This document shows positions 6,311-28,450 of a stretch of DNA of 48,343 nucleotides, in pieces (position 1 is the first letter of the stretch; every line of letters starts with the position of its first letter). The notes under the pieces are model-generated. The model did not search any database. It was not told the DNA's origin and was given only the letters and a program-made list of their open reading frames with translations. The position numbers and the translations under genes were made by a program. Origin of the DNA: a virus (lineage: Duplodnaviria > Caudoviricetes); IMG/VR virus record IMGVR_UViG_3300013885_000007, positions 1 through 48,343 of that record. One strand, given 5' to 3'.

Positions 6311-6328
6311 TTATTTCACGTGAAATAA
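6311..6328. promoter_or_regulatory. parS/NBS-hybrid palindrome, copy 1
   Basis: Perfect 18-bp palindrome TTATTTCACGTGAAATAA immediately before the RBS of 6344. Confidence 0.85.
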
Positions 6329-6343
6329 AGGAGGTTCAAACGG

Positions 6344-6844
6344 ATGCTTTTACAACAGGAGATCACCAAGGCAATCCAGTCGGCGGCCAGGGACCTTATT
6401 GCCGAAATGGGCCTCCAGCAGATCGAAACCAGGCTGCTGGAGATCCCGGCCAGGATCAAGGAGAAGCAGGATCAGATCCTGGCCAAGCAGCGAGAGATCG
6501 AAGACCTCAAAAAGCAGCTGGATGAGCATAGGTCCATCGCCGAGACGATCAAGGCGGTCACCGAGGCCGAGGTGGTCACGGAGACCAACAGCGACGGAAA
6601 ACCCCGGTTCTCCAACGACAAGCTCCGCAATGCCGAGACTGCCAGGCGCCTGGCTGCCAACGAGGAATACCAGGCCGCCAGGCGGGCGATGCAGGGCTTC
6701 GAGGAACAGATTGCCGCGGTCAATCTTGATATCGGCATGCTCAGGAATGAGGTAGGACAACTAGAAGCCACGATGGCCAACTACCGGGTGATCCTCTCCG
6801 CCCGGGCTGCACAACTCGCCGCCATATTCGGCGGCCAAGTGTAA
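6344..6844 (+). CDS. Coiled-coil phage protein
   Basis: AAGGAGG RBS; heptad-rich sequence. Confidence 0.75.
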   Translation: MLLQQEITKAIQSAARDLIAEMGLQQIETRLLEIPARIKEKQDQILAKQREIEDLKKQLDEHRSIAETIKAVTEAEVVTETNSDGKPRFSNDKLRNAETARRLAANEEYQAARRAMQGFEEQIAAVNLDIGMLRNEVGQLEATMANYRVILSARAAQLAAIFGGQV

Positions 6845-6861
6845 ACCAAATTCGAAAGGAG

Positions 6862-7761
6862 ATGCTTCGAATGGCGATACCGCAAGAAAAGGTTACAAAT
6901 CTGCCAGTTCAACTCACACCTGCGCAGGTCCAGATGATGCTGGCAGGAGTGGACTGCACCGGCTTATCCGAGCAGGATAAGTTAGAACTGGCCGCCGTCC
7001 TCTGGGAGGACTATCAGAAGAGCGCTGAAATCACCAATTACAAACCGCAACGAATCAAAATTGTTAAGGAGACGCAGATGTTTGCCGACTCCCTGGGCAA
7101 TTCTTTCGACGAATTGAGGGGCGTCATAATCGCCCGGCAGACTACCCGGGGATACTGGCCGAAGAAAGGCAATGACAAAAGGCCCTTATGCAGCTCCCTG
7201 GACGGCAAAACCGGCCGTATGCGCCATGAGGCGGCTGACGGATCCGTGTTTTTTGAGGAGCGACACTGCAAAGATTGCGAGTTTAACAAGTGGGGCAGCG
7301 CCGTCGACGAACATGGGCAGCCGCTGGCCGGTAAGGCCTGTAAGGAGATGCGCCGTATCTATATCCAGCAGCCGGGGGCGATGTTCCCCAGCTATATCAG
7401 CCTGTCGCCGACCAGTATCAACGCCTGGGACGACTTCATTTCCGGACGCCTCAACGCCGGCATTTCCGATCTTAAGGCTCAAGTAGTGCTGACCTTGATT
7501 GAAAGCGGCAACAACAAATTTTCATACAGCATTGTCAAGGCCAAGAACGGTCCGGCGCTCAAACCTCTGGAAATCCTCGAATTCATGAAGATTAAAAAGC
7601 AATTCGAGGAGAAACTGCTCGGCATGGACGTTGAAGATGAGGATTATTACAGCGAGGAGCCTGGCGAGGGAACTGTCGGCGACGCCTGGGAGCCACCAGA
7701 ACCAGAAACCGTGTACAATAACGTGGCGTCATCGGACCTGCCTGAAGACCCTCCGTTCTAA
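6862..7761 (+). CDS. Putative ssDNA-binding/annealing protein
   Basis: Cys motifs (CSSLDG, CKDC..N.WGS, GKACK), acidic tail ending in DPPF as in SSBs; position in the recombination module. Confidence 0.55.
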   Translation: MLRMAIPQEKVTNLPVQLTPAQVQMMLAGVDCTGLSEQDKLELAAVLWEDYQKSAEITNYKPQRIKIVKETQMFADSLGNSFDELRGVIIARQTTRGYWPKKGNDKRPLCSSLDGKTGRMRHEAADGSVFFEERHCKDCEFNKWGSAVDEHGQPLAGKACKEMRRIYIQQPGAMFPSYISLSPTSINAWDDFISGRLNAGISDLKAQVVLTLIESGNNKFSYSIVKAKNGPALKPLEILEFMKIKKQFEEKLLGMDVEDEDYYSEEPGEGTVGDAWEPPEPETVYNNVASSDLPEDPPF

Positions 7762-7862
7762 TAAATGATTATCTTTCCGGTTGCCCCGCTCCTGGTGCGG
7801 TATACACCTCCTTTCCAGGGGCGGGGAAAGCCGGATTAATACTCCGATGAGGAGGAGAAGAG

Positions 7863-8114
7863 ATGCTGTTATGCTGCACCAAAAACTGCAGATATGAATG
7901 CTATAACGGAATGATCCAAAACAACATCAGCACGGCAATGAGCATACTGGCTGAAGTGACTCAGCGGTTGTATAGAAAGAATCCCGAACACCCGGAACTA
8001 ATTCACCTGATGCAGGCCCATAGTATCCTGCAGGATGCTTTCGAGGTGGGTGCTAAAGGATGGGCTATGCACCACGGGGGTACGGTTGAGGTAGAACTGG
8101 AGGTGGACCCATGA
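7863..8114 (+). CDS. Hypothetical Cys-rich protein
   Basis: GGAGGAG RBS; stop overlaps the dinG start. Confidence 0.65.
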   Translation: MLLCCTKNCRYECYNGMIQNNISTAMSILAEVTQRLYRKNPEHPELIHLMQAHSILQDAFEVGAKGWAMHHGGTVEVELEVDP

Positions 8115-10093
8115 GCCTTTCACTCAGCTCGCTTGATTCTCTCTATGAGCGCCTTGCGGCCCGGGCAGCTATGCCGGTACAACTCAGCCCGGTAGAGGAG
8201 ATATTCCGGCATACACTGCCGGAGCGAATTCCCGGATACGAGGTCCGGGAGCCTCAGATCGAGATGGCACGGCTGATAGAGAATGCTCTGCAGAACAACG
8301 AGCATGTCCTTGCAGAGGCTGGAACCGGCACCGGGAAGAGCCTCGGCTACCTGATTCCCATTCACCTGTACGTCGAGGCCAACGGCGGCAGGGCAATTGT
8401 CTCCACCGGCACCATCGCGCTACAGGAGCAGCTGATCAATAAAGATATCCCGCTCCTGGAAAGCGTGCTGCATACCAATTTCCGGGCACGGCTCGCCAAG
8501 GGCAAGGGGAATTACCTCTGCCGGGTACGCCTGGCGGCCGAGATCGATCAGGTAGCCGGCATGTTTGGCGACCCGGAACAGGCGCAGCTGCTGGCTCTGG
8601 AAGAGTGGGCCGCGGAGTCCGAGACCGGGGACCGTGCCGAACTTTCATGGGAGCCGGGGGAGCTCTGGTCACGGATCTGTGCCGACGACAACTGCCCTGG
8701 GAAGAAGTGCATAGTGTATTCTGATTGCTTTGTCACCAGGGCTAAAGAACGTCTTCGTGATGCCCAGATCATCGTCTGTAACCACGCCCTGTTCATGCTC
8801 GATCTGGCTCTCAAAGAAGCCACGGACCATGATGCCAAGATACTGCCGGAATATCAAATAGCATGCCTTGACGAAGCACACAAGGTGGAGGAGATCGCCC
8901 GGGCTGCCCTTTCCACACAGTGCAGCATCAACCGACTGCCAATGTTGCTGAAACAGGCCCAAAGGATCACGGGGATCGACTTCAACCTGATCGAGGACGC
9001 CAAGCTGCAGAATGATCAGTTCTTCATGATGTGCGCGGCGCTGGACAAATCCGATAAGTTCCGGCTCCGGATTAACAATGCGATTGCCAATCAGGGAGTA
9101 AAACTGCTACACCTGGTGGAGCAAATCATAGACTCACCCGACAATAATCTCATCTCAGACCATGAAACCAAAATCCTGGAGAACCTGGACCGGTTTGTAT
9201 CTGACCTGAATTTCATCCTGAGTGTCCAGAACCAGGATCAGAACGTCTACTGGGTGGAAAAGCAGCAGGGACACCAGCGGCTAAAGGTGATACTCCACGC
9301 CACTCCCATTGACGTGGCGCCGATGCTGGCAGATATGCTGTTCGGCAACATGGATTCCGTGATTATGACCTCGGCTACATTGAGCGCTGGGGGTAGGTTC
9401 GACTATTTGAAACAAAGCGTCGGTTGCAACGAGGCCCGCGAGATCCATGTCGAATCGCCGTTTGACTACCCAAACCAGTGCCTTTTATACCTGCCAGAGA
9501 ATCTTCCGGATCCCATATCGACAACCTTTCACGCCGAACTGATTCATGTTATCTACGACATCTTGAGAGTGACCAACGGGCGTGCCCTGGTCCTGTTCAC
9601 ATCCTACAAGGGCATGAACGAAGTTTATTCTGCCCTGGCCGATAAGCTGCCCTGGCGGGTATTAAGGCAAAACGACCTCCCCAAGCGGGTGCTCATAGAA
9701 ACGTTCAGGCAAGATACTCATTCGGTGCTCTTTGGTACCCAGGGGCTATTTGAAGGGATATCCATTGACGGAGAATCGCTTTCCTGCGTGATCATCGACC
9801 GGCTGCCGTTTGCGGTGCCCGATGAGCCAATAAGCCAAGCTAAGGCCGATTTCCTGAAACGGCAGGGGATTAACGTATTCCGGCACATGTCGCTCCCGGA
9901 GGCGATTTTGAAACTGAAGCAGGCCTTTGGACGGCTGATCCGTACCAGGACAGACAGGGGAGTGGTAGCAATCTTAGATAATCGAATAACCACAAAGCCC
10001 TATGGAAAGTTGTTCTTGCGGTCGCTGCCGGCAGCGCGGCCGGTAAGATCACTGGCAGAGGTAGAGCGGTTCTTTGAGGAGGCGGTAAAGTGA
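8111..10093 (+). CDS. dinG: DinG/YoaA-family Fe-S helicase
   Basis: REPQ Q-motif, AEAGTGTGKS Walker A, KGKGNYLC plus further Cys ligands, DEAH, TSATL, QAFGRLIR. Confidence 0.93.
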   Translation: MSLSLSSLDSLYERLAARAAMPVQLSPVEEIFRHTLPERIPGYEVREPQIEMARLIENALQNNEHVLAEAGTGTGKSLGYLIPIHLYVEANGGRAIVSTGTIALQEQLINKDIPLLESVLHTNFRARLAKGKGNYLCRVRLAAEIDQVAGMFGDPEQAQLLALEEWAAESETGDRAELSWEPGELWSRICADDNCPGKKCIVYSDCFVTRAKERLRDAQIIVCNHALFMLDLALKEATDHDAKILPEYQIACLDEAHKVEEIARAALSTQCSINRLPMLLKQAQRITGIDFNLIEDAKLQNDQFFMMCAALDKSDKFRLRINNAIANQGVKLLHLVEQIIDSPDNNLISDHETKILENLDRFVSDLNFILSVQNQDQNVYWVEKQQGHQRLKVILHATPIDVAPMLADMLFGNMDSVIMTSATLSAGGRFDYLKQSVGCNEAREIHVESPFDYPNQCLLYLPENLPDPISTTFHAELIHVIYDILRVTNGRALVLFTSYKGMNEVYSALADKLPWRVLRQNDLPKRVLIETFRQDTHSVLFGTQGLFEGISIDGESLSCVIIDRLPFAVPDEPISQAKADFLKRQGINVFRHMSLPEAILKLKQAFGRLIRTRTDRGVVAILDNRITTKPYGKLFLRSLPAARPVRSLAEVERFFEEAVK

Positions 10094-11535
10094 GCGAGAT
10101 CACGAGAATCGAGATAAACGACTTCCAGAGTCACAAACACAGCATCCTGGAGCCGGCGCCGGCGGGCCAGCTGACTGTCATAGTGGGGCCTTCCGACTCG
10201 GGCAAGACAGCGCTGCTCAGAGCTCTGCGCTGGCTGTATTACAACACGCCCCAGGGCTGTGACTTTATCAGGATAGGGGCAAATATCGCCAGAGTGCGCA
10301 TCGACTACGCCGACGGCAATTCAGTGACCCGGGAGCGCAGCCACAAGGGGTTCAATAGGTACAAAATCGACAGCCAGGAGAAAACCGAGCCTGATCGCTT
10401 CGAGGGTTTCGGTAACGCCGTCCCCCTGGAAATCCAGCAGATCACTGGCGTTCACCCGGTCCAAATTGGCGACATGACACTAAACATCAACCTGGCTGAC
10501 CAATTATCGGGCCCGTTCCTCGGGTCCGATATCTCCGCCCCTATGCGAGCCAAGGTGCTGGGCAAGCTGGCCGGCACCGAGGAAGTAGATTATGCGGCCA
10601 AGGGGGTTGGGACCGACATCTATCGGGCAAGACAGGAGGAGAAGCGTCTAGGTGATGAGGTGACCAGGCTCCAGGATGAGTTGACAAAGTATGATTATCT
10701 GCCGCTGCTGGCAGAACGCATCCACCTGGTGGACGTGCTGTTGACTGAAGTGCGGAGGAAATTGGAGCGGAAGCAGAAGCTTGAAAAGCTGCTGGAACAG
10801 CGGAGTGAAAACATCAAAGCCCAAAATCTGGTTGAAGATCAACATCTTAAACTGTCATACATGATCCTGCAAGTGGAACCGCTTTTAAACCGGGCAGGGC
10901 AACGGCTGAATCGTTATCGGAATCTCCAGAGCGCTAACTCCCAACTAATAACAACCATGGTAGGGCTACGCCAAGCAATTTCCGTCCTGGAAGCTACGGC
11001 CGGTGTCAATGAGGCGGGAACTATTTTTGAGCGTATATCCCAAAATTTCCGAGAACAAAGCAAGCTCCAATACGGCCGAGGGATGCTGTTCATGATAGGC
11101 CAGAAACTGGACTATGCGGAACACGTTTTGGAAGTCACGGAAAACATTGATGATGCTGCAGTTTTGTCACAAAAAATACAGGAATCAAAGCTAAAAAAAG
11201 ACCGGCTTGAGGACTATTGGTGGAAAGCCACCATACTCGTTTCTGAATTAGATCTTAATCAAGATAAGCTTGCGCATTTAGAAAAGATTGATGACGCCGC
11301 AGTTTTGTGCCATGACAGTTCCCACCGCCTTTTGAAAAGAAACGGGTTGTCTGCACTACGAGACCAACTGCTAAATACCCACCGGTTGCTTACAGAAAAC
11401 CTGGTCAAAATTGAGCGAGGTGCTGCCGAAGAAAAACGCTGCTGTGAAACATATAAGGCTGCGCTGTTGGCTGCCGGGATTTGCCCGACATGCGGTAGCC
11501 AGATAACAGAAGAAAACCTAAAGGAGGTTGTGTAG
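10090..11535 (+). CDS. SbcC/Rad50-like ATPase, N-terminal half (Walker A, coiled coil, zinc hook)
   Basis: INDFQSH, GPSDSGKT, C-terminal CPTCG. Confidence 0.85.
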   Translation: MSEITRIEINDFQSHKHSILEPAPAGQLTVIVGPSDSGKTALLRALRWLYYNTPQGCDFIRIGANIARVRIDYADGNSVTRERSHKGFNRYKIDSQEKTEPDRFEGFGNAVPLEIQQITGVHPVQIGDMTLNINLADQLSGPFLGSDISAPMRAKVLGKLAGTEEVDYAAKGVGTDIYRARQEEKRLGDEVTRLQDELTKYDYLPLLAERIHLVDVLLTEVRRKLERKQKLEKLLEQRSENIKAQNLVEDQHLKLSYMILQVEPLLNRAGQRLNRYRNLQSANSQLITTMVGLRQAISVLEATAGVNEAGTIFERISQNFREQSKLQYGRGMLFMIGQKLDYAEHVLEVTENIDDAAVLSQKIQESKLKKDRLEDYWWKATILVSELDLNQDKLAHLEKIDDAAVLCHDSSHRLLKRNGLSALRDQLLNTHRLLTENLVKIERGAAEEKRCCETYKAALLAAGICPTCGSQITEENLKEVV

Positions 11536-11802
11536 ATGCAAGCAAGTGCTGAAACCATGAGGAATTTTGAAAACCGGCTAAATGAAATAAAGAGCGCTAT
11601 CGAAAAGGCTCGTACAGACCGAGCCAAGGCCGAAGCCACAAAAGAGCAATTAGAGAAGCAACGAGAACAGATTGAGGCCGAAATTAGGGCGCTGGGCGTG
11701 GAGCCGGAGAACCTGGATGCTGCTATCGAGGAACTGGATACTCAAATTGCTGCTGACCTGGCCAGGCTGGAAGAATTAATCCCGGAAGAATACAGGGGGT
11801 AA
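11536..11802 (+). CDS. Short coiled-coil protein, probably part of the split SbcC
   Basis: All-heptad sequence; abuts the SbcC-N gene. Confidence 0.7.
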   Translation: MQASAETMRNFENRLNEIKSAIEKARTDRAKAEATKEQLEKQREQIEAEIRALGVEPENLDAAIEELDTQIAADLARLEELIPEEYRG

Positions 11803-11808
11803 GGATGA

Positions 11809-12012
11809 ATGATAAATGCCTTGATGGAGTTGCCCAAATGCTCTGTTAAAGGCCATGGACAGATGGAGTTGCGTCGTCCCAAAGGGAAACAGACCTATGA
11901 ACAGCAATTTTGCGGCGTTTGGTATGACTGCCAGTATCCTGGATGCCACAGTTCCGTCCTGTTCCCATCAAAAGAACTGCTTGACCAGCTAGAAAGCATG
12001 AAAGGAAAGTGA
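11809..12012 (+). CDS. Small Cys/His protein
   Basis: C...H...C...C....C pattern; operon orientation. Confidence 0.6.
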   Translation: MINALMELPKCSVKGHGQMELRRPKGKQTYEQQFCGVWYDCQYPGCHSSVLFPSKELLDQLESMKGK

Positions 12013-12437
12013 TTCTGATGACAAGACAAGAGATCGAGGCCATGCAGCCAGGCGTCGAAATGAATGTTTTAGTTGGCCAGAAAGTCAAGAAATGCAAAGT
12101 ATTTGCAGTAAGCGACTCGGAAGAAGGGGAGATAACGGGATACCGGATGATTGAAAATGGACACTATCAAAATCTGCCTGACTATTCCCGGGACATGAAT
12201 GCTGCATTGACGCTGATGTATGATGACCATGCTTTCGATACGGGGCTTTTTATCGCTCAGTTAAATAACGGCAAATGGATCTGCGGCAGGGCCAGTCACA
12301 TCTATGACATCAAGATCAGTGATGACCTTTACAAGGACAGGGAACTTGTGATCGCCGATACAGCACCCGAGGTTATTTGCAAGATGCGGCTGATCCTGGC
12401 GCTCTGTCCGGAGGAGGCAAAAAATAGTGTCGCATGA
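12009..12437 (+). CDS. Phage ABA-sandwich-like domain protein
   Basis: LPDYSRDMNAA and ADTAPEVIC motifs. Confidence 0.6.
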   Translation: MILMTRQEIEAMQPGVEMNVLVGQKVKKCKVFAVSDSEEGEITGYRMIENGHYQNLPDYSRDMNAALTLMYDDHAFDTGLFIAQLNNGKWICGRASHIYDIKISDDLYKDRELVIADTAPEVICKMRLILALCPEEAKNSVA

Positions 12438-13083
12438 AACGATGACGATAGATCATTTTGATTCCGCCCTTCGTGTGATGCAGTCAAAATACAACGCTGC
12501 CCTGGGTCAGAAGGAATTGCTGGAAAGGCAACTCCTGGACAAACAAAACGAATTAAACCAGGTACGCCAGAACCTGGCTACTTGGGAACAGGTGCAGGTT
12601 CTTTTTACAAAGGTATCCGAGTTTGCCCGTGAACAGCTGAAGACCCGCATCGAGGAGACCGTGACCGCCGCTCTCCTGGCTGTGTTCGGTGAAGGATACA
12701 CATTCCGGATCAATATGCGCCAGCTGGGGAACCAGCCGGCTGCCGAGTGGCAGGTAGTCAGCCAATATGGAGAGGTTGAAGTAGCAGCGTCGCCCGAGGA
12801 CGCCAGGGGAGGGGGCGTTGTGGACGTTATTTCCCTGGCGCTCCGCCTTGCCATGCTGGAACTGCTGCGGCCGCGAGTAGAGGGGCCGGTCCTCTTCGAC
12901 GAACCGGGGAAACATCTCTCGGCGGAATACGCCCCGAATCTGGCCTACTTTCTCAAGCAGTATGCGGCCAAAACCGGCAGGCAGGTGATCATGGTTTCTC
13001 ATTCGGCGCAGCTGGTCGACGCGGCTGACCGCTCTTTCCTGGTCACTCAGAAAGACGGGATCTCGGAGGTGAAGCAGATATGA
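12427..13083 (+). CDS. SbcC/Rad50-like ATPase, C-terminal half
   Basis: Signature-like RGGG, ISLALRLA, Walker B VLFDEP, H-loop MVSH. Confidence 0.85.
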   Translation: MSHETMTIDHFDSALRVMQSKYNAALGQKELLERQLLDKQNELNQVRQNLATWEQVQVLFTKVSEFAREQLKTRIEETVTAALLAVFGEGYTFRINMRQLGNQPAAEWQVVSQYGEVEVAASPEDARGGGVVDVISLALRLAMLELLRPRVEGPVLFDEPGKHLSAEYAPNLAYFLKQYAAKTGRQVIMVSHSAQLVDAADRSFLVTQKDGISEVKQI

Positions 13084-14066
13084 TCCGACTTCTATACCTG
13101 ACAGACCCGCACGTCAGAGGCAACAACCCCCGGGCCCGGGTCGATAATTACCCAGATACCATCAAGATGAAGCTCCGGGAGTGCTGGAGTATCGCAGCGC
13201 AGCACCGGTGCCAGGCCGTGGTATGCGGCGGCGATCTCTTCGACCGGCCGGACCCGGATTACATTGTGACCGGGGAACTGGCAACCGTGCTGGCGGAGTG
13301 CCCGGTGCCGGTCTACACGGTGCCTGGCAACCACGAGATTTTCGGCTATAACCTAAGCACCGTACCACGGACCGCCTTGGGGCTGCTGGCGAGAATCGGC
13401 GTGGTAAGGTTGCTGAGCAGGGAGCCAGTGGTAATCGAAGACAAGACCAAAGGTTTCAGTATCTATCTAACCGGCCAGGGCTTTCATGGAGACATCGACC
13501 GCAGCCAGGCCGACTACCAGACAGGACTCGATAACAACCTGGCCGGTTGGAAGGTCCATGTCATCCACTCCATGCTGCTAGAATCTCCGCTGCCCAACGG
13601 GGTGGCCCACATCCTAATCAGAGACCTGGAGACCGACGCCGATATGATCCTGGCATCTCATTTCCACGCCGGGTTTGTCACCCAGCGATGCAGGAGCGGG
13701 GCGCTGTGCGTCAACCCCGGCGCTCTGGGGCGGGTCCGGGCGGACATTGCAGAACTGTACCGCCCGGTGCAGGTGGCCCTGTTGCAGTTCGATCAGGAAG
13801 GCATCCGCGCAGACAGGATCCAGCTTGATTCCGCCCGCCCGGGCAGCGAGGTGCTCTCCCGCGATTACCTGACGCAGCAGGCCGAGCGGGAGGACCGCAC
13901 CGGCCGATTCCTTGAGCTACTGGCCAGCGAGGGCGAATCGAGGTTTCTGGAAATCCGGGAGATTGTTGAGGATATTGCCCGGCGGGAGAGTTTACCGGCA
14001 GCAGTGATCCAGGATGCACTGAGACGAATTGGAGCGGCCAGGGAAGAGCTGGGGAGAGCGGGGTGA
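13080..14066 (+). CDS. sbcD: SbcD/Mre11-like metallophosphoesterase nuclease
   Basis: TDPH, GGDLFD, PGNHE, SHFH, NPGAL motifs. Confidence 0.9.
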   Translation: MIRLLYLTDPHVRGNNPRARVDNYPDTIKMKLRECWSIAAQHRCQAVVCGGDLFDRPDPDYIVTGELATVLAECPVPVYTVPGNHEIFGYNLSTVPRTALGLLARIGVVRLLSREPVVIEDKTKGFSIYLTGQGFHGDIDRSQADYQTGLDNNLAGWKVHVIHSMLLESPLPNGVAHILIRDLETDADMILASHFHAGFVTQRCRSGALCVNPGALGRVRADIAELYRPVQVALLQFDQEGIRADRIQLDSARPGSEVLSRDYLTQQAEREDRTGRFLELLASEGESRFLEIREIVEDIARRESLPAAVIQDALRRIGAAREELGRAG

Positions 14067-14070
14067 GCTC

Positions 14071-14229
14071 ATGAACTACCAATATGTGATCGACAAAGAA
14101 GCCTGCCGGGAATCATTTGAGAAGTTCCCGCCAAAGAAGCAAAAGCTGATCAAGAAAATGGCAGCCGAACTTGAAAAACTTCTGGCTGAAAGCGAGGAGA
14201 AGCATAGATGCCCAGAGCAGCCTACCTGA
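14071..14229 (+). CDS. Hypothetical protein
   Basis: Short ORF in operon orientation. Confidence 0.5.
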   Translation: MNYQYVIDKEACRESFEKFPPKKQKLIKKMAAELEKLLAESEEKHRCPEQPT

Positions 14230-14462: not shown

Positions 14463-14648
14463 ATGCTTGGAACGCCTTTAACTGGAGCAACCCTGATAAA
14501 GCAACGCTACCGCATCGAACAGATGAGAAGGCAACTGGAAAAGCTGGTAACCAAGCACGGCAGCCTGACGGCACCGGTGGTGCTGGCCTACAGCCGGATG
14601 ATAGATGGAGCGCTGAACGAATTTGAGCGTATGAGGAGGGCGGGGTGA
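14463..14648 (+). CDS. Spo0E-like aspartyl-phosphate phosphatase family protein
   Basis: RIEQMRRQL...GSLTAPVVLAYSRMIDGALNEF resembles the Spo0E helix pair, with a degenerate SQELD motif. Confidence 0.6.
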   Translation: MLGTPLTGATLIKQRYRIEQMRRQLEKLVTKHGSLTAPVVLAYSRMIDGALNEFERMRRAG

Positions 14649-16888: not shown

Positions 16889-16896
16889 GGGGAGGG

Positions 16897-17112: not shown

Positions 17113-17114
17113 TC

Positions 17115-19080: not shown

Positions 19081-19110
19081 ATTACGCATTAATGCAGGAG
19101 GTGGTAAGCA

Positions 19111-19350: not shown

Positions 19351-19378
19351 TGACAGAAAACCGCAGAGGTGGGAAAGC

Positions 19379-19648: not shown

Positions 19649-20072
19649 ATGTGGCAAGTGTGAAGCTTGGGGGTCAATGCCGCCAGCAAAGTGTGACGGT
19701 TGTCCTGATTGTAATACGACTTTAGAAATACATCCAGATTATCACAAAACACCGGAACCCCATGATTGGGTTACGAAGTACGATGAAAACACTGGCAAAC
19801 CATATCGGATCTGCCAGAGATGCTACCGGAGAGCAGAGGTTAAAGAGCACGGCACGCGGGTTGGAGAGGCTCTTGGACCACTGACCCAGGATCGGTTTAC
19901 GGGCTGGCTTTATGACGGGTACATGGTTGTCATTCATGAAAACGGAGATGAGGTCTGCCCGGGGCCCCACATCTGTGCAGTGTTCAAAGGTAATCAGATC
20001 ATCTGGCTGGACGAAATAGCAACGGCGGGGCGGGCAATACTGGCGGCAGCTGGAGTGAGGTGTAATGCATGA
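19629..20072 (+). CDS. Cys-rich hypothetical protein
   Basis: Several CxxC motifs. Confidence 0.6.
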   Translation: MLYYRCKCGKCEAWGSMPPAKCDGCPDCNTTLEIHPDYHKTPEPHDWVTKYDENTGKPYRICQRCYRRAEVKEHGTRVGEALGPLTQDRFTGWLYDGYMVVIHENGDEVCPGPHICAVFKGNQIIWLDEIATAGRAILAAAGVRCNA

Positions 20073-21733
20073 TCTGCGTGGGATGCAAATCGCACTTTCC
20101 TGAAGAGGAAATTGGAATTAGCGGGCTATGCGGTCCTTGTTTTCAAAAATACGCCGAGGAGGTGAGAAAAAAGATGTCAGAAAACATCGGCGCCATTGCT
20201 GATCGGATGCAGGTTGCGGCTTATGAAGATCCGTATTACGGGTCCGCCGACCCGGAAGAGGAGCCGGCCCCGGTCCAGGAAACACCGGCAAGCCCTAGCT
20301 ATAAATTGGTGCCTATCCAATTGCTTCATCCTAATCCCAATAATCCCCGCAAAAAGTTCGATCAGGATTCGTTAAACAAACTCACCGAGAGTATCAAGCA
20401 GGTAGGCATCTTGGAGCCGATTTTATGCGTAAAAAATATGCTTGACGAATGGGGATCTTTCGAGTTGCGTATCGTCGCCGGCGAGCGACGCTACCGGGCG
20501 GCCCTGGCAGCCGGCCTGAAAGAGGTGCCGGTGATCATCCGTGACCTGACCCCTGATCAGGAATTCGAGGTCATGCTCACGGAAAACATCCAGCGCCAGG
20601 ACCTGGACCCGATTGAGGAGGCCCAGGCGTTTGCGGCCGCCCTGACCCGGGGCTGGAAGCAGACCGAGCTGGCCGAGCGTCTGGGTATCTCTCAGGCGCA
20701 GGTGGCGAATAGGCTGCGGTTACTGAAGCTCCCGGACCAGGTACAAGATCTTATTTCACGTGAAATAATTTCTCCTGGCCACGGCTTGGCCTTGGTAAAG
20801 GTGGCTGCGGCGCCGGAACTGGTAAAAGCCATTGCAAAAGAATTCCAAGATTACGGAGTTCCTGTTGCCCGGGCAGCTGATATTGTCGACCGTGAAATAA
20901 GAAGTCAGAGTCGTCCTCTTTACTCAGGACAATGGAACGCCCCCAAGTTCAACCATCAGACTACCTGTATCAATTCGAAATGTAAATACAGGGTACATGC
21001 TGTAGCTTGGGAGGACGGGAAAGAGCATGCCTACTGCATAAAACCTGAGTGTTGGGAAAAATATCAGGCTGAAGCTATTCAAGTTGAACGGGAAGCGAAG
21101 ATGGCGGAGTTACGGGCCAAAGCCCAAGCTGCCGGCCAGGAAACGGAACAGGTAGAGCTGCCGAAACTGAAAGACTTGGATAACAACTCCTATAATCGGT
21201 TTACCTATTACTCTGACATCAAAATTGATGAGTGCATCGGCTGTGAAAAGATAGTTGACGCCCTTAATTATAACGACGAAGTTGTCCAAATCTGCACAGA
21301 TACTGCTTGCTGGAAAAAGAAAGCTCAGGCAAAGATTAGAGAAAAAGCTAAGGCAACTAGGGAAAAAAAGAGTACGTTTGAGGATATCAAAGACCGGATC
21401 TTGGAGATGGCCAAGCTCCAAAAGGAACCTGACCGCAGGCTCCTCACCTATATGGCTGTAATGGCTCTGTGCGAGCCAATCAGGTCTTCTTCTTGGACGC
21501 ATGAGAAGGTTTGGAAAGCCGCATACAAATTTTTTGGTTGGCCAGGCGAAGAATATCCCGGTTGGCATCATGAGGCAGGCATCAAAGATCTGCTCAATAA
21601 CCTGGAGAAAATGGATCAGGGTGAGCTTTGGCAGGTCGTCCTGTTCGGTTTGCTTCGGGGCATTGACCCGGATGAGAAAGTGTTTCATCTTACCTTGAAC
21701 TCTATGATCGAGGAAACAAATATCGATCAATAG
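20069..21733 (+). CDS. parB: ParB/Spo0J/Noc-family CTP-binding DNA clamp with Cys-rich C-terminal extension
   Basis: PNPNNPRK, GILEPI, IVAGERRYRA, ENIQRQDL, HTH ...SQAQVANRLRLLKLP...PGH. Confidence 0.92.
   Translation: MICVGCKSHFPEEEIGISGLCGPCFQKYAEEVRKKMSENIGAIADRMQVAAYEDPYYGSADPEEEPAPVQETPASPSYKLVPIQLLHPNPNNPRKKFDQDSLNKLTESIKQVGILEPILCVKNMLDEWGSFELRIVAGERRYRAALAAGLKEVPVIIRDLTPDQEFEVMLTENIQRQDLDPIEEAQAFAAALTRGWKQTELAERLGISQAQVANRLRLLKLPDQVQDLISREIISPGHGLALVKVAAAPELVKAIAKEFQDYGVPVARAADIVDREIRSQSRPLYSGQWNAPKFNHQTTCINSKCKYRVHAVAWEDGKEHAYCIKPECWEKYQAEAIQVEREAKMAELRAKAQAAGQETEQVELPKLKDLDNNSYNRFTYYSDIKIDECIGCEKIVDALNYNDEVVQICTDTACWKKKAQAKIREKAKATREKKSTFEDIKDRILEMAKLQKEPDRRLLTYMAVMALCEPIRSSSWTHEKVWKAAYKFFGWPGEEYPGWHHEAGIKDLLNNLEKMDQGELWQVVLFGLLRGIDPDEKVFHLTLNSMIEETNIDQ
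20751..20768. promoter_or_regulatory. parS/NBS-hybrid palindrome, copy 2 (inside parB)
   Basis: Perfect TTATTTCACGTGAAATAA, lying in the codons for LISREII. Confidence 0.85.
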
Positions 21734-21745
21734 TTCACCTTTACA

Positions 21746-22396: not shown

Positions 22397-24542
22397 CGAG
22401 GAGAAACTGGATTTCACAGAAGCCGACAAGGAAGGGCTAGCCGCCTATATAGACAGCGAATCAGAAAAAAATGCCAATAACAACACGCTCGACGTGGACA
22501 CTATCATCCTGTTCTGCCGGGAAGATCCCCAGGGAGTGTTCGATGAGAAGATCATCGGCGCACTGGCGATGATGACCGAGGCGGACCGGGCTAAGGTCAA
22601 GACTGCCTTAAAAAATAAAATTAATAGCAGAGATTTCGACAATGCAATCAAGGACTACAGGAAGAGAAACAACCTGCTCCGGATAGCGGACAAGAGCGCG
22701 GACAGGCCGCGCCTCACCGCTACATTGCCCGACTGCCCGCTGGACGCACCGGTGCCGGGATCCTGGCAGATAAACCAGGATGGAGTTTTCGAGGTGGTGA
22801 CCCGGATAGGAGAGAGTGGCTTCGTTACGACCAATATCGAGCGCCGTTTCCCCGTCCCCGTGGTCCTGGCCGCCGCCCTGACGCCGCTTGATACCCAGGA
22901 TGAAACGTTCAGCTACGAGGTGGCCTGGTTGAATGGCGGCGGTGATTGGCACCGGGTGGCAATGGACGCCGCGGCCATATTTGACCGGTCACGGCTCACC
23001 GGGGCGGCAAATTTCGGGCTGCCTGTCGATTCGGAAAACTCGAAGGGGCTGCTCAGGTGGCTTGCGGCGCTGCGGGACACGAGAGAGGTGCCGAGCAAAC
23101 GAGTGGTGACGCGATGCGGGTGGCATGGAGGACAGAAAAAAATACTCGTGGTAGGCGCTCAAATTGTTAATAGCAAAGAAGGAGATGATCAAGTGAATAA
23201 TATCGAGTGGTCTCCGAATGTTAGGGGCACAGAACGAGAAATGGTGAACGCCTTAACAGCAAAAGGTGATCCGAACAAGCAGAAAGAGCTACTACTCAGG
23301 GTATGTAAACGCTGGCCGCTGGCCGGGTTTCTTGTGGGCGCATCCTGCGCGGCACCGTTGCTCAGGCTCCTCAGGGAACACAACCGCTTGGATATCGATG
23401 GATTTACGGTAGAGGTGGTGAGCGATCAGGCCGGGGTGGGCAAATCAACTGGAATCGAACTGGCGGCGTCCATCTGGGGACAACCATCCAGACTGGTCCG
23501 GACCTGCGACCGAACGGGAGTGGCCTGGGAGGTGATGCGTTACGTGTTTTCGGATCTGCCAATCTTCCTGGAAGAAGTGCAATTGGCTAAACCGGAGGAC
23601 CGGGAAAAGATTGTTTACAGCCAGAGTCAAGGGATGGGTCGGGAGCGCGGTTCCCGGAGTGGCGGGCTCAGAACGACCAGGCGGTTTTACAACGTGCAAC
23701 TGATAGCATCGGAACAGAGCCTCAAGGATTCAGGCTCCCGGGAAGGCATGGAGGCCCGGGTGATCACGTTGTCGCCTGTGTTTGGGAAAAGGAGCCCGGA
23801 ACATGCCATCGAGGTCAGAGAAATCCGGAAACAGTGCGGAACCCATTACGGTCACGCAGGTCAGTCGTATATCAAGTATCTTGTGGACAAAGTCAACAGT
23901 GGCCGGTGGGAAGATATCCTGCAACTGTTCGACGAGCTTGAAGTAATTCTGCAGCAGAAAATTCCTGCAGATGCGCCTGGGGAATTTCAGTCGATAGCTA
24001 TCAGGATGGCCAGCCGGGTAGCCGCCTGCGGGTTGGGACTCTGGTTGCTGATGGAGGCCCTGGGAGTCAGTATCGAGGATGGCGCCCAACAAATCCCGTT
24101 CAACGCGATGATGGCTGCATGGAATCGGGAAGTGCTGAAGAACATCGATGCGGTGCCGTTGTGGAAGAAAGCATTGGCTGTAATCCAAAGTTGGGCGGCG
24201 GAAAACAGGAACCGAATAGAGGGGCTGGAACCCTTTGGAATGCATGGTCCCAAGTCGCCGACCAGTTATATCGGCAAGGTGATTCAACTACGCAACCAAC
24301 CGGATCGCTGCATTTGTTTTTACCAGAATGCCTTTAACGAGGTAATTATGAAACATCTTAACCAAGACAGTAGGACTATCTTGAAGGCATTCAAGCGGGA
24401 GGGTGTGATCATTTTAGGCGATAAGGATAAGCCAACCAGAAATGTGGGCAATGGATGTAGGGCAATATGCTTTTCTTATGACACCATCTTCCCGTCAGAT
24501 GATGAAGATGACGAACAAAGTTACCATAGTTACCCTGTCTAA
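22389..24542 (+). CDS. DUF927-family replication protein/helicase
   Basis: CGWH, Walker A AGVGKST, LPIFLEE, G.GRER, HYGHAG motifs; followed by iterons. Confidence 0.8.
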   Translation: MTDEEKLDFTEADKEGLAAYIDSESEKNANNNTLDVDTIILFCREDPQGVFDEKIIGALAMMTEADRAKVKTALKNKINSRDFDNAIKDYRKRNNLLRIADKSADRPRLTATLPDCPLDAPVPGSWQINQDGVFEVVTRIGESGFVTTNIERRFPVPVVLAAALTPLDTQDETFSYEVAWLNGGGDWHRVAMDAAAIFDRSRLTGAANFGLPVDSENSKGLLRWLAALRDTREVPSKRVVTRCGWHGGQKKILVVGAQIVNSKEGDDQVNNIEWSPNVRGTEREMVNALTAKGDPNKQKELLLRVCKRWPLAGFLVGASCAAPLLRLLREHNRLDIDGFTVEVVSDQAGVGKSTGIELAASIWGQPSRLVRTCDRTGVAWEVMRYVFSDLPIFLEEVQLAKPEDREKIVYSQSQGMGRERGSRSGGLRTTRRFYNVQLIASEQSLKDSGSREGMEARVITLSPVFGKRSPEHAIEVREIRKQCGTHYGHAGQSYIKYLVDKVNSGRWEDILQLFDELEVILQQKIPADAPGEFQSIAIRMASRVAACGLGLWLLMEALGVSIEDGAQQIPFNAMMAAWNREVLKNIDAVPLWKKALAVIQSWAAENRNRIEGLEPFGMHGPKSPTSYIGKVIQLRNQPDRCICFYQNAFNEVIMKHLNQDSRTILKAFKREGVIILGDKDKPTRNVGNGCRAICFSYDTIFPSDDEDDEQSYHSYPV

Positions 24543-24812
24543 AGGCAATGGGTAACTTTTGGGTAACTCCTGAAAATCAAGTGCGAGAAGGGATAGAGGA
24601 CAATAAATATATATAAGTTACCAAATTACCCTTATTTATAACTATATATATACACGCACACACGCGCACGCGCGTGATCAAATAATAAATAAAAAAATTT
24701 TTCTACCTTTGTAAAAAAAACGGGTAACTGGGTAACTAAACCCCTCAAACCCTTGTGGCAGTAGGCGTTGACGAGTTACCCTACGGGGTAACTAACCGGG
24801 TAACAGTTACCC
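24519..24812. repeat. Putative replication origin with AGTTACC/GGTAACT iterons
   Basis: About 12 copies in both orientations around an AT-rich core and a TATATATACACGCACACGCGCACGCGCG tract. Confidence 0.75.
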
Positions 24813-24841
24813 AGTCCTGAGAAAAGGAGCTGATCAATCCC

Positions 24842-25312
24842 ATGGAAACCGCACCGCAGTACATGATCAAACCTGAAACACGGCCAACCACGGTTTACAC
24901 GGTATACTTAGCCGGCAGCATCGACGCCCATGCAACCCCGGACGCCGCCATCGCCTGGTGCGAAGAAGCCACCGAAGTGCTCACCGCTGCCGGGTACCGG
25001 GTGTTGAATCCACTGCGCTGGCCGGCCGACAGCTATGATGACAGCGCCGAGATCATGCGCCGTAACCTTGTCGATCTCTTGCTCAGCGACATCATTCTGA
25101 CCGAGATGGACAACCCGGGGCTGGCCTACATCGGCACGGCTATCGAGATTTACCAGGCCTGGCAGCTGGACAAGGAGATCATCCTGTGGGGCAGGGCCAA
25201 CCGGCGCAGCCACGCCCTGAGATATTATGCGCCGTTGAGATACGACACTTTAGGAGATGCCTTAAATTACCTTGTGTTGAAAATGAGAGGAGTTGTTTCA
25301 ATTGTCCGTTAA
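24842..25312 (+). CDS. Nucleoside 2-deoxyribosyltransferase-like (nucleotide N-glycosidase) protein
   Basis: VYLAGSI, VLNP, D....DIIL, GTAIEI motifs. Confidence 0.75.
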   Translation: METAPQYMIKPETRPTTVYTVYLAGSIDAHATPDAAIAWCEEATEVLTAAGYRVLNPLRWPADSYDDSAEIMRRNLVDLLLSDIILTEMDNPGLAYIGTAIEIYQAWQLDKEIILWGRANRRSHALRYYAPLRYDTLGDALNYLVLKMRGVVSIVR

Positions 25313-26336
25313 CCTGGAGAAACCAACCCCGATTGAATGTCTGGAGCAGCGTATAGCCATGACTGAGGCGCGCCAGATGCGGCCGGAGGACCTGAACCGG
25401 GAGGATTGCCAGCGGCTGCTTGAGGCCGGATTCGAGAATTACGTCATTGCCCGGTTATATGGCTTCAGCGAAACAGACTTCTTTTCCAAGCTGAAGGAGT
25501 GGGGATTAAACAAACCGCTGAAGAACTGGGATTTCCAAAGCGATCGGCGAAGCGATCGGAATAAGTCCGATGGACCATCGAGATTGACGCCGGCTGATCT
25601 GACCCGTGAGCAGGCGGCCAGAATGTTGCTCGCCGGCGTGTCCAAGCCGGATATACGGCGGAAGTATAATTTCCCGAATGCCTCGGCGCTATATGCCCGG
25701 CTGGAAGAATGGGGCCTACACAAAAAGGGATTGCCGCTTGACTTTGAATCAAAACAGAAGGAGGTTCGCAAGATGGCAGCAGCAGTGCTTAAGGAAATTG
25801 AACAGGAGAAGCAAATTTTGCAGACCAAAACTGAGCTCACCGAAGAGGAAAAGCTGGATTTATTTGGAGAGCAGGAACCCTCGATCGAGGCCGTCCAAAA
25901 GGCTGCCGAGGACAAAGATGTCAAGGACGAAACCCCGGAGAATTCCATGACAGAACTGTTTAGTGTTGACTTGTCAACCTGGGAACCGGTGGACTACACA
26001 AAGGCACGATATACCACTGCACCGTATTTATGGGTCAGTGCGAAGGGATACGGCGTAATCGGCAACACTGATTTGCGTCCTAGCAGCTATGTCCAGTTCC
26101 GAATTGATCCCGCTGGTTGTCGGATTGCGGTAATACCGGCCAGCCAGGGCCAGTTGCTCTATAACGAGGAAGCCAAGCAGCGACGGCGGTTCAGCGGTAA
26201 CCACCTGGCTCGTAGACTGCAAGCCAAAGGAATTAAGCTACCGGCAAGGTTCCACTTGGAGTGGAACGAGGCGGCGGGGGCATACATCGGCGTGCTGGTC
26301 GAGAAAATCGAGAAACTTGAAAGCGAGGCGGTCTAG
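25293..26336 (+). CDS. Hypothetical protein with two HTH-like repeats
   Basis: P.DL.RE....L.AG...L.EWGL occurs twice. Confidence 0.65.
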   Translation: MFQLSVNLEKPTPIECLEQRIAMTEARQMRPEDLNREDCQRLLEAGFENYVIARLYGFSETDFFSKLKEWGLNKPLKNWDFQSDRRSDRNKSDGPSRLTPADLTREQAARMLLAGVSKPDIRRKYNFPNASALYARLEEWGLHKKGLPLDFESKQKEVRKMAAAVLKEIEQEKQILQTKTELTEEEKLDLFGEQEPSIEAVQKAAEDKDVKDETPENSMTELFSVDLSTWEPVDYTKARYTTAPYLWVSAKGYGVIGNTDLRPSSYVQFRIDPAGCRIAVIPASQGQLLYNEEAKQRRRFSGNHLARRLQAKGIKLPARFHLEWNEAAGAYIGVLVEKIEKLESEAV

Positions 26337-26897
26337 ATGGCGAGGATTGTTGGCATCGATGCCAGCCTGACCAACACCGGAATTGTGATTTACGACACAG
26401 AAGCCGAAACTTACTGGTCAGCCGTCATCACCAGTCAAAAAACTGGTGTTCGGCGTTTGATCGACATACACAACCAGGTTGTTTCTTATCTGACCGGTGC
26501 GGACATGATCGTCATCGAAGGTTATGCTTACGCTGCAGCCAACCAGGCACACCAGCTCGGGGAACTCGGAGGTGTTCTGCGGGTCATGTTTCATGAATCC
26601 GGTATAAAGTGGATTGAAGTGGCGCCGCAGCAGGTAAAGAAATTTGCAACCGGAAGCGGTAATGCGGGCAAAGACGTAATGCTACAGCAGGTTTATAAGC
26701 GCTGGGGGGCTGAATTCAAAACATCGCATGAGGCCGATGCTTACGCCCTGGCCCGTATCGGCGCCGCTTATCTCGGCCAGGTGGCCGGGCTGACGGCGTT
26801 GCAGCTGGACGTGGTGGAGGAGATCAGGAATGGGAAGGCACGAAAGATGAAAAAGGCTGCCGCGGGGAAGAAGGAGAAGGGGGTTGCGTCATTATGA
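26337..26897 (+). CDS. ruvC: RuvC-like Holliday junction resolvase
   Basis: IVGIDASLTNTG, VIEG, VKKFATGSGNAGK, EADAYALA. Confidence 0.85.
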   Translation: MARIVGIDASLTNTGIVIYDTEAETYWSAVITSQKTGVRRLIDIHNQVVSYLTGADMIVIEGYAYAAANQAHQLGELGGVLRVMFHESGIKWIEVAPQQVKKFATGSGNAGKDVMLQQVYKRWGAEFKTSHEADAYALARIGAAYLGQVAGLTALQLDVVEEIRNGKARKMKKAAAGKKEKGVASL

Positions 26898-27232
26898 CGC
26901 GGGCGAAGATTGAGCATAACTGGAAAAGCGATGCAAGAGGGCGCAGCGTTTTAGTCCTCACGAAGACAAGAGGCAGACTAACCCTCGATGAGATTACGGA
27001 TTACCTGCTATATAACGCCAAACTATATGGGCAGTACGTGATATTGCTGAACGCATCCGAATCTGTTTGTGGTGGCTGTGGGTGGGGCGATGATGAGAAG
27101 CAGGGTGACAGCGTCGCTTTATACGAGATAATCGAACAGGAAAAATGCCCGATCTGCAAGGGCGTAACACCCTTGCAGTATTGCCCCAAATGCGGTGAAG
27201 AATTGGTGGAAGGTGGTGGCGGTGAATCATGA
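26894..27232 (+). CDS. Zinc-ribbon protein
   Basis: CPIC...YCPKCG. Confidence 0.65.
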   Translation: MTRAKIEHNWKSDARGRSVLVLTKTRGRLTLDEITDYLLYNAKLYGQYVILLNASESVCGGCGWGDDEKQGDSVALYEIIEQEKCPICKGVTPLQYCPKCGEELVEGGGGES

Positions 27233-27666
27233 TGTTCATTGCCCTGCTTATTCTCCCGGACCGCGCTGCCCTGGTCCCGATTCCTGATAACCTGGCTGCA
27301 AAGTATCATCTTGCCCCGCAGCGCATGCCCTTCTCTACCGGTCTGGTGCTGGATGCCTGGGAAGGCAGCTACTGGGCGCATTGTTCGCTGACTGACTGGC
27401 GATGGGTCAGCGATACAATCTATGATTCATTCACCGGGCGGACGCGCGTCTCCGGGGCGGCGGTGTTTCCGGGGTTTCCAAAAAAGAAACTGCGCTGCCC
27501 TTATAATCCCAGGGTGCCCGGCTGCGATTACAACAGTTGTTCGGATAATACACACTGCATTGAGAAGCCCTGGGTGAAGCAGAACATCGATCAGGATTTT
27601 GCGGGTCTGAAAGCGACGGGCAGCCCGCCAGTTAAGAGGCGTCGCGGCAGGAGAAAAACCGCATAG
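27229..27666 (+). CDS. Hypothetical protein
   Basis: ATGA coupling; Cys-containing C-terminus. Confidence 0.6.
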   Translation: MMFIALLILPDRAALVPIPDNLAAKYHLAPQRMPFSTGLVLDAWEGSYWAHCSLTDWRWVSDTIYDSFTGRTRVSGAAVFPGFPKKKLRCPYNPRVPGCDYNSCSDNTHCIEKPWVKQNIDQDFAGLKATGSPPVKRRRGRRKTA

Positions 27667-27681
27667 GAGCGTGATACCCAG

Positions 27682-28140
27682 TTGCCTCACCTCGAAACGG
27701 AACAGGGCGACACCAAAACTGAAAAAGAACTCATCACACCGAAGCTGGTGGACTGGCTGTTATACAATCTCCCTTACCTGAAAGAGCGATGCGAAGAGAT
27801 ACAGCCAGGGACATCCGGTGATATTATTCTCTTTTTCCCTCGGTCTAAGGGAGGGGTGAGCAGCAAGGTTGAGCGGATAGCGATCAAGCGGGCAACATTG
27901 ACACAGGTGATAGATGCTGTGGAGCGGGCAATCAGACGATTTGATAGGCGGCAACGGACCATCTACAGGTTAAAATACCGGGTTGGCTTGAGACCCTATT
28001 CCCGCATCGCTAAGAAGATGCATTACAGTGAGCGAAGCATCGAGGAGCATGTAAAAAAAATAAGGGATTTTGTGATGCAAGAAATTGATCAAGTTCCAAA
28101 GTCAGATCTTCGAGAATTCATGCGGGTTTGCGGGATCTAA
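27682..28140 (+). CDS. Late transcriptional activator (ArpU/RinA/sigma region 4-like)
   Basis: SSKVERIAI, C-terminal HTH IAKKMHYSERSI; last gene before terS. Confidence 0.75.
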   Translation: MPHLETEQGDTKTEKELITPKLVDWLLYNLPYLKERCEEIQPGTSGDIILFFPRSKGGVSSKVERIAIKRATLTQVIDAVERAIRRFDRRQRTIYRLKYRVGLRPYSRIAKKMHYSERSIEEHVKKIRDFVMQEIDQVPKSDLREFMRVCGI

Positions 28141-28210
28141 ATATGTGGCAAAATATGTGGTTTTTTTGCGGTTTTTTTGCGGGATTTGTATGTGGGATTT
28201 GCTATAATAT
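28141..28210 (+). promoter_or_regulatory. Putative activator-dependent late promoter
   Basis: Tandem TTTTTTTGCGG and TATGTGG repeats upstream of TATAAT (28205-28210), no consensus -35. Confidence 0.55.
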
Positions 28211-28268
28211 GCAGCAGGACAAACTATCTCTAAAACCAGGCCGCTCGACCCACGAAGAGGGGAGTAAG

Positions 28269-28394
28269 ATGGACAAAAAAGCTGCGATGAAAATATGTGA
28301 GTTGTGCCTGTTGGCTCTGTCGGGAGGAATTTTGGTGCTTCCTTTTTTAGGAGAGGGTGCACTTGATAAAACGCTGTTCTTCCCTGAGCAATAA
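28269..28394 (+). CDS. 41-aa hydrophobic peptide
   Basis: GAGGGGAG RBS; basic N-terminus then a hydrophobic stretch; followed by a hairpin at 28411-28430. Confidence 0.5.
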   Translation: MDKKAAMKICELCLLALSGGILVLPFLGEGALDKTLFFPEQ

Positions 28395-28434
28395 AGGGAA
28401 AGCATGATGGAGCCGTCCGGGAGGGCGGCTAAAT

Positions 28435-28450
28435 TATTTCACGTGAAATA
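28435..28450. promoter_or_regulatory. parS/NBS-hybrid palindrome, copy 3
   Basis: Perfect 16-bp TATTTCACGTGAAATA just upstream of terS. Confidence 0.85.

Follow-up and report, generated by a model that had tools for sequence, protein, structure and literature searches.

What does a phage gain from a ParB-like protein of its own, and which DNA does that protein read? This question is raised by the virus record IMGVR_UViG_3300013885_000007 (Duplodnaviria; Caudoviricetes), whose 48,343 nucleotides, called the window below, carry an orphan ParB-like gene, here named parB, together with exactly three copies (starting at 6312, 20752 and 28435) of the 16-base perfect palindrome TATTTCACGTGAAATA. A sequence-only reading of this DNA had proposed that the palindrome is a hybrid of the chromosomal parS site and the Noc-binding site (NBS), matched by a hybrid specificity code in the phage protein. 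The explanation preferred here, given a probability of roughly 0.55, is that the palindromes are private loading sites for a clamp dependent on cytidine triphosphate (CTP), which would coat and mark the phage DNA during lytic replication. Orphan ParBs are described as common on prophages, with targets that are largely unknown (10.1101/2025.10.10.680097), and one such phage family gains here a concrete and testable DNA target. The 16-mer was not found in the literature searched by sequence, and the titles and abstracts covered describe no phage in which an orphan ParB is paired with dispersed sites belonging to it.

The palindrome and its candidate reader

The claim of three perfect hybrid palindromes stands, given that shuffled sequences hold a mean of 0.12 copies and that 0 of 100 shuffles reach three. 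No further copy with up to three mismatches is present in the window, where one site with four mismatches lies at 34057, and canonical parS or NBS, allowing up to three mismatches, are found there only at the same three palindromes.

The second copy lies within parB itself, in the codons for I-S-R-E-I of the helix-turn-helix (HTH) domain (Table 1). In 14 aligned genes of the relatives, the ATT and ATA codons are kept in 14/14 and the TCA and CGT codons in 13/14, while the codons of the invariant residues which flank the site vary freely, so that the constraint appears to act on the DNA. The in-gene site is spelled with rare codons and, given the amino acids, the probability of this choice lies between 5e-5 and 1e-2 in each of 28 records. 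In the parB genes of records G478 and G475, the in-gene site is near the 5' end and in another reading frame, which suggests, from its placement, an independent origin of the self-site.

The phage protein passes the family model TIGR00180 (147 bits, cut-off 58), and it reaches neither the Noc model TIGR04285 (165.5 against a cut-off of 315) nor the ParB model of the PRTRC system, TIGR03734 (108 against 278.6). Its CTPase and HTH domains are approximately 40% identical to chromosomal ParB, and the first half of its structure model (predicted local distance difference test score 88.5) has ParB and Noc as its best Foldseek matches. In the CTP-binding motifs (Box I R, GxRRxRA and ENxxR), the residues R94, G138, R140, R141, N173 and R176 of the phage protein are invariant in 54 homologues. 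The catalytic position, Q52 in the ParB of M. xanthus, is occupied by N92, and asparagine is found there in 37/51 phage cores versus 1/9 host references. Given that an alanine mutant of Q52 is reported to spread over 175 kb around the parS cluster, versus 33 kb in the wild type (10.1101/2021.05.05.442810), slower release and wider spreading are a possibility for N92.

An alignment-based search found 79 viral loci with relatives, a single-protein search of viral contigs having returned nothing; the cultured-phage records hold no full-length homologue, with 0/330 matches covering 80%. An exact scan of IMG/VR for the palindrome returned 66 loci, several with repeats and several where the palindrome again spans the I-S-R-E-I codons of a related parB; its low-GC single matches were treated as probable chance, and four giant-virus loci were left out of the follow-up.

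The code that would join protein and site is structurally defined. According to Jalal et al. (2020, PMC7383237), Q173 reads adenine 1 of the half-site and R201 reads position 6, lysine or arginine at 179 or 184 is permissive, and G201, without a side chain, is described as contacting no base; the four-residue code stated in the sequence-only reading agrees with that report. The same report describes engineered variants (QKKG, QKAG and QTKG) which switched to a site with both parS and NBS features, and places Q173 last on its predicted path. The alignment to solved ParB structures and to genomic ParB and Noc confirms that Q209, R215, K220 and G237 of the phage protein occupy these specificity positions. 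Among the 54 homologues, glutamine is present at 209 in 53, arginine at 215 in 54/54 and lysine or arginine at 220 in 42, and position 237 holds glycine in 31, serine in 15, alanine in five, threonine in three and arginine in none. The proposal that Q and G together predict the observed site therefore survives only in part, given that Q matches the outer A, whereas G201 makes no base contact and thus permits, rather than dictates, A at position 6.

Co-variation in relatives and the host's own sites

In the related phages, a scaffold pattern was matched in 33 of the 50 best records and in six of the other 29. De novo clustering of palindromes found the sites again in many records, but codon repeats rich in GC dominated its output, and a fixed scaffold with positions 1, 6 and 7 free was used instead. 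From the 79 relatives, 48 records, mostly those with matches, were taken whole and analysed with the window and eight others. One duplicate (G472, of G010) was dropped, the code of G425 was unread as its parB ends after 161 codons, and G458, a near-duplicate of G488, was kept in the total of 44 Q-coded records and dropped from the position-6, spacing and context counts.

In these 44 records, with position 1 free, 125 A-sites were counted versus 6.0 in shuffled sequences (96 lie outside parB), an excess which is enriched by the selection of the records, the identity of A or G at position 1 not having been selected. For the other outer bases, the counts are 13 versus 6.3 for G, 4 versus 7.1 for C and 10 versus 7.4 for T. 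At least two A-sites are present in 29/44 Q records and in 0/5 non-Q records (p=0.008). The R173 records carry palindromes with an outer G instead (three in G536, two in G537, and one in-gene plus one degenerate in G484), and the P173 record G486 has eight mixed G/A sites. At position 6, the half-sites hold A in 38/42 with G201, 37 A, 20 G and one T (58 half-sites) with S201, A in 0/118 with T201, and C in 12/12 with R201. The co-variation of the site and the HTH residues, which had been suggested as a check, is thus seen at both positions, and the motif of record G489 also predicts three sites in its relative G510. The four residues nevertheless form a necessary context without fully predicting the site.

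Other palindromes were also observed in these records. In G481 (C1, 761-34556), an E173/K201 protein is accompanied by six to seven TTTCGCCGGCGAAA-like sites, which is another code state, and in G483 (C1, 30937-31096) four canonical parS sites are packed closely together at a distance of 1.8 kb from a QRET parB, the phage having six sites of its own type in addition. A second dispersed family, TTTCARATTTGARA-like and in six copies, stands beside the ParB-type sites of G458 (C1, 11430-34881), and G523 (C1, 884-23006) has seven GTGGGTTTCAACCCAC palindromes unrelated to the ParB scaffold.

Is the palindrome simply the host's own parS or NBS? In the genomes where it was found, it is not. A scan of 1/64 parts of the genome contigs, which returned only chromosomal ParB and Noc, provided a control of 80 chromosomal ParB loci, with 80 R..G ParBs, seven Q..R Nocs and 77 exact parS sites; all 87 matches are R..G or Q..R, and the exact hybrid 16-mer is at none of these loci. 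The 16-mer is present in 0/28 genomes of one class and in 2/401 of its phylum (three copies each), the other 399 being without it, and, slightly relaxed, in 5/30 genomes of the class of the two positive genomes. One genome, G105, has both systems, in that its host ParB (RTQG) has a canonical parS 0.9 kb away and its Noc (QKRR) an adjacent canonical NBS, while its phage contig (terminase, portal and capsid) encodes a QRKG protein 53% identical to that of the window and carries three hybrid sites.

Given that the palindrome serves as neither parS nor NBS in the genomes that carry it, and that it co-varies with the residues of the phage protein, the three palindromes and the phage ParB are likely an orthogonal cognate pair. 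Direct binding of this ParB to the palindromes is very probable, on the strength of the code and of the co-variation, and its closure and spreading as a clamp are probable to a lesser degree.

Layout of the sites and the possible role of the proposed clamp

The proposed mechanism is that a dimer of the phage ParB would bind each palindrome, close on CTP and slide outward, and that clamps loaded at the spaced sites would cover and label a large part of the phage DNA in early lytic replication, apart from the host ParB and Noc. In this mechanism, Q209 would recognise the outer A in the manner of the Noc glutamine and thereby hold the site apart from the host parS, and the small G237 would accept a centre of the parS type and thereby hold it apart from the NBS. 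parB is located in the early/replication operon, directly upstream of the genes for a CHC2 primase and a DUF927 primase/helicase, and its neighbours in 12 other records include genes of replication or recombination (74/129 neighbours scanned). This position suggests early lytic expression, so that parB would probably be active in lytic growth and not in the lysogen.

The sites are dispersed and not clustered, which does not fit the earlier description of the palindrome as centromere-like. Over 27 records with at least three sites, the sites are spaced more evenly than random placement would give (combined p 1e-5, with 21/27 below 0.5), with a median gap of 7.6 kb (87 gaps). The 107 sites outside parB include 52 in called open reading frames (ORFs), and the genes beside the sites differ between phages, with replication, head, tail, lysis and integrase modules all represented. 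This even spacing, the sites forced into genes, the lack of a fixed target operon and a satellite-like carriage of the sites, described below, are the reasons for preferring the organising or marking of the phage DNA in cis over transcription control. That this is the main output, with the clamp as a platform for the C-terminal domain and with local effects on transcription secondary, stands at about even odds; it is favoured over transcription control of the KorB or BisD kind, which is in turn ranked above partition or forespore delivery.

A number of observations weigh against the loading and marking reading. The spacing in the window itself is not significant (p 0.15), 57% of the window lies within 5 kb of a site, and the sites are clustered in G433 and G008. 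Eight of the 44 Q records have no scaffold site (G489 and G510 among them have another palindrome) and seven have one, and the scaffold is absent from the Q-x-x-G records G474, G496 and G514. In the most distant relatives it was matched in only 6/29, and for many of the distant proteins that have Q but another recognition helix no site was matched. The records are related, so that the R201 pair is one event and the T201 group largely one clade. Sites also occur where the phage-type ParB does not: the assembly of G062 has three sites without it, and G441 (L329-L330), rated as a 100% complete temperate phage, has three exact late-region sites and no ParB even by profile search. Single sites outside recognisable prophages are found at G550, G062:C8 and G105:C67, the last of these an extra site adjoining toxin-antitoxin genes on a separate contig. 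Finally, the enrichment of the sites near start codons and hairpins fits transcription control as well.

This last point leads to the strongest alternative, a serious one that is nonetheless clearly less probable, in which the same clamp and sites serve mainly for genome-wide transcription control, through silencing as in KorB or activation as in BisD, with early and late timing and autoregulation of parB. The 55 non-coding sites outside parB, versus 12.7 expected, argue for it, as does the position of 14/50 intergenic sites at 13-24 nt ahead of a co-oriented start codon. Hairpins adjoin 8/37 sites versus 19/370 control positions (p 0.001), and 6/18 versus 22/173 in a second count (p 0.03); in the window, three terminator-like hairpins were found versus 1.8 in shuffles. 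One position recurs, at the junction of late activator, terS and HNH genes, in the window and in L004, L007, L008, L020, L029, L035, L054 and L060, the in-gene site is conserved, and the protein has a large C-terminal domain that matches no family, BisD being described as having an extra activator domain. However, approximately half of the sites fall within called ORFs, their neighbours span all modules, the spacing is over-dispersed, and in a dense genome the gap from a stop codon or terminator to the ribosome-binding site (RBS) is the only free space. No sigma-70-like promoter is present on the coding strand beside site 1 or site 3, and no KorA-like partner was identified.

Much less probable is a device for partition or delivery, which would couple the phage DNA to the host ParA, to the structural maintenance of chromosomes (SMC) complex or to the forespore translocation machinery. 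The five parS sites of phi29 are reported to serve its entrapment in the spore with the host Spo0J (PMC2731898), the window encodes a Spo0E-like protein, and the identity of the CTPase and HTH domains to chromosomal ParB, given above, leaves contact with SMC conceivable. On the other hand, the absence of ParA from the window, as claimed from the first, is borne out by a family scan of 66 window ORFs, the window possibly lacking the right end of the phage, and by the absence of the Walker A motif KGGxGK[ST] from every reading frame; the same pattern recovers ParA at 74/80 chromosomal parB loci and is present in 3/57 records. The LGxGL ParA-binding motif is missing from the N-terminal extension of the window protein and is present in 0/54 and 0/78 homologues (132 in all), versus 75/80 chromosomal ParBs, which speaks against the suggested recruitment of the host ParA. 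The dispersed sites and the integrating phage, which does not need plasmid partition in the lysogen, point in the same direction, and delivery into the forespore as a general role, which had also been put forward, is at odds with homologues of the same layout labelled by their sources as the non-sporulating Thermoguttaceae and Phycisphaerae (metagenome-bin labels, which are weak).

A host factor (a variant of ParB or of Noc, or a different regulator) reading the palindrome with a merely coincidental match of the code would account for the sites in records without the phage ParB (G441, G437, G452, G447 and G433), for the single sites in regions not clearly prophage and for the 5/30 positive genomes of one class, but it is very improbable given that the 16-mer is missing from 25/30, 399/401 and 28/28 genomes, that the ParB and Noc of G105 have canonical sites and all 87 chromosomal proteins one of the two usual codes, and that the site varies with the residues of the phage protein and sits inside its gene.

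The elements with sites and without the clamp may be mosaics, incomplete assemblies or users of another phage's clamp, and ParB-less carriers of the same site are what would be expected from a benefit in cis. G441 and the window have a serine integrase type and a phrog_6499 regulator type in common, and G437, G452 and G447 are fragments with sites and without the phage ParB. In G433 (L374, 550-13220), five sites (2974, 5871, 6328, 6690 and 13591) are present, four of them exact and three directly before an RBS, with no ParB. Its genes, by PHROGs, are an integrase, an excisionase-like regulator, a primase, HNH, terS, terL, head-tail adaptors, a portal and a protease fused to the capsid protein, and none of the ORFs scanned, which did not include every small one, matched a tail or holin family. 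A capsid-forming phage-inducible chromosomal island (cf-PICI) is described as carrying an integrase, regulator, primase, HNH, terS, terL, portal, adaptor/connector and protease/capsid, and no tail or holin (PMC10085698). Each of the genes in this list has a PHROGs match in G433, which is possibly a cf-PICI-like element that uses the clamp of a helper. A further integrated element, G062:C14 (L241, 1316-14400), has two exact sites together with integrase, repressor, excisionase, primase, tape-measure and tail genes, and no head gene match.

A broader and more speculative extension is that clamps with retuned codes mark self DNA, through a lineage-specific parS-like word every 5-10 kb which satellites without a clamp carry in order to hijack it. 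If satellites exploit the sites, the clamp would be a shared resource in phage-satellite conflict. What is new here, besides this satellite lead, is that natural phage ParB sites are mapped to a code defined by structures. The Q..G hybrid, familiar from engineered variants, is found in nature together with the predicted site, other code states occur with sites of their own, and Thr201 is newly predicted to exclude A at position 6. If the reading is true, the family is a natural library across the ParB-Noc specificity space (Q with A1, R with G1, R201 with C6, and T201 without A6). Given that orthogonal ParB-site pairs are reported to serve in multi-colour DNA labelling, it also offers several candidates for this use.

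Ancestry, related systems and genome context

The protein would be a hybrid in specificity, as judged from its residues, and the trees do not make it a natural ParB-Noc intermediate by descent, as had been claimed. A grouping of the phage proteins with Noc versus ParB, which had a support of 95 in a quick 42-row tree, vanished once the specificity columns were removed under a mixture model and was rejected. In that mixture-model tree, without the recognition helix and the site codons, the clade of the window protein (99/98) falls in an unresolved group with ParBs, and only a second phage clade is near Noc, unstarred; the place of Q173 at the end of the path of Jalal et al. also stands against intermediacy. 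The T201 group is read as largely one clade from a 137-row tree, which was built by a quick method and includes rows that were poorly extracted (G536, G481 and G442).

Chromosomal ParB-parS has in common with the phage system the CTPase and HTH domains, a 16-bp palindrome with the TTTC..CG..GAAA scaffold and a small residue at 201. The phage system differs in the Q for R at 173, the A for G in the site, the lack of ParA and of the ParA-binding motif, the dispersed sites, a Cys-rich C-terminal region of 280 residues and the N at the position of catalytic Q52. Noc-NBS is similar in Q173, A at position 1, the basic permissive residues, the orphan ParB-like protein and the dispersed sites. In comparison with it, the phage has G for R at 201 and A for C at position 6, scores below the TIGR04285 cut-off, is not the sister of Noc without the specificity columns, and encodes a phage-borne protein with no conserved N-terminal extension; Noc has an N-terminal amphipathic membrane anchor.

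Among mobile elements, KorB has approximately 12 OB sites over its element and belongs to a partition operon with IncC, and multiple sites spread over the element are likewise a feature of the phage system. KorB-OB of the plasmid RK2 is also a ParB-type CTP clamp acting near or far from promoters, but it is described as needing KorA for strong repression and as using a different operator (PMC11790492). BisD-bisS of ICEclc has a ParB-like CTP clamp, an extra domain and parS-like loading sites on an integrated element, with two sites, approximately 50 kb of sliding and activation with BisC (PMC12409273), whereas the phages have 3-8 spaced sites and no known partner. phi29 uses the host protein and the host sequence for its parS sites, and the window phage its own protein and an orthogonal site. 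The engineered PtoN variants QKKG, QKAG and QTKG have the same Q..G combination as laboratory constructs (PMC7383237), and here it occurs in a natural family with genomic sites. HerB and the T-dioxygenase activator are other repurposed ParBs, reported to act differently. By these comparisons, the phage system falls outside both ParABS and Noc and would work in the manner of KorB-OB and BisD-bisS and, in layout, of Noc-NBS.

Table 1. Coordinates of the sites, the ParB-like protein and neighbouring features in the window
Feature	Position	Strand	Remark
Large serine integrase	1..1545	-	Marks an integrating phage
Site 1	6312..6327	.	Palindrome between a stop codon (6310) and the RBS AAGGAGG (6328-6334), early rightward operon
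Orphan ParB-like gene, 554 aa	20069..21733	+	Pfam ParB_N (PF02195), HTH_ParB (PF17762)
N-terminal extension	20069..20299	+	Cys-containing segment, helix and acidic linker; variable among homologues
ParB CTPase domain, aa 80-175	20306..20593	+	R94, GERR (138-141), N173 and R176 intact
HTH DNA-binding domain, aa 177-269	20597..20875	+	Q209 (20693-5), R215 (20711-3), K220 (20726-8), G237 (20777-9)
Site 2	20752..20767	.	Inside the parB HTH domain; codons ATT TCA CGT GAA ATA = I229-I233 (I-S-R-E-I)
C-terminal region, aa 276-554	20894..21730	+	Two predicted Cys4 ribbon-plus-helix units and a helical domain
Terminator-like GC-rich hairpin	28411..28430	+	Consensus match only; ends 4 nt before site 3
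Site 3	28435..28450	.	Between the putative late activator region and terS (phrog_509; 28468/28477-29502)

Site 1 is 16 nt ahead of an ATG at 6344. It had been placed at the RBS of the recombination genes, which is right in so far as it abuts an RBS and loose in its wording, since the gene at 6344 and the next have no confident family and the helicase and SbcCD-like genes are further downstream. In the ParB-like protein, the N-terminus is not conserved among homologues, some of which begin at the CTPase domain. The C-terminal region has no match in Pfam or NCBIfam, its Atlas matches are all below 0.9 and its best fold Z is 5.7, with no fold assigned; one protein of the second phage clade has a C-terminus that differs from it. 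A second ParB-like gene was observed directly beside the first at L296 (6749-8050, G482) and L354 (7773-8897, G491).

The contig is that of a temperate phage, with a serine integrase, CI/Cro-like repressors, helicases, SbcCD-like genes, a primase, a terminase, and head and tail genes, and related phages are present in contigs of four DNA runs, which have no bearing on the sites. The stop codon of the integrase lies, on this reading of the sequence, within a stretch resembling the 3' half of a transfer RNA (tRNA), on the plus strand at 1-45, in which ARAGORN found no whole tRNA; this left end is likely the attachment (att) core, a tRNA target being uncommon among serine integrases. The window as a whole gave no Rfam family and no complete tRNA.

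A Spo0E-like phosphatase domain is encoded in the early operon (14463-14648), which suggests a spore-forming host, whose sporulation the protein may modulate. An SbcC-like ATPase is split over three genes (10090-14066) into an N-terminal part of 481 residues, a coiled coil of 88 and a C-terminal part of 218, and is followed by a gene for an SbcD-like phosphoesterase. Between the repressor and the integrase, an HsdR_N-type nuclease gene (1649-2836) is a possible defence moron. Finally, a low-GC stretch in the tail module (38083-40374) holds the gene of a second recombinase, a XerC/D-like tyrosine enzyme (39535-40374), which precedes the major tail gene.

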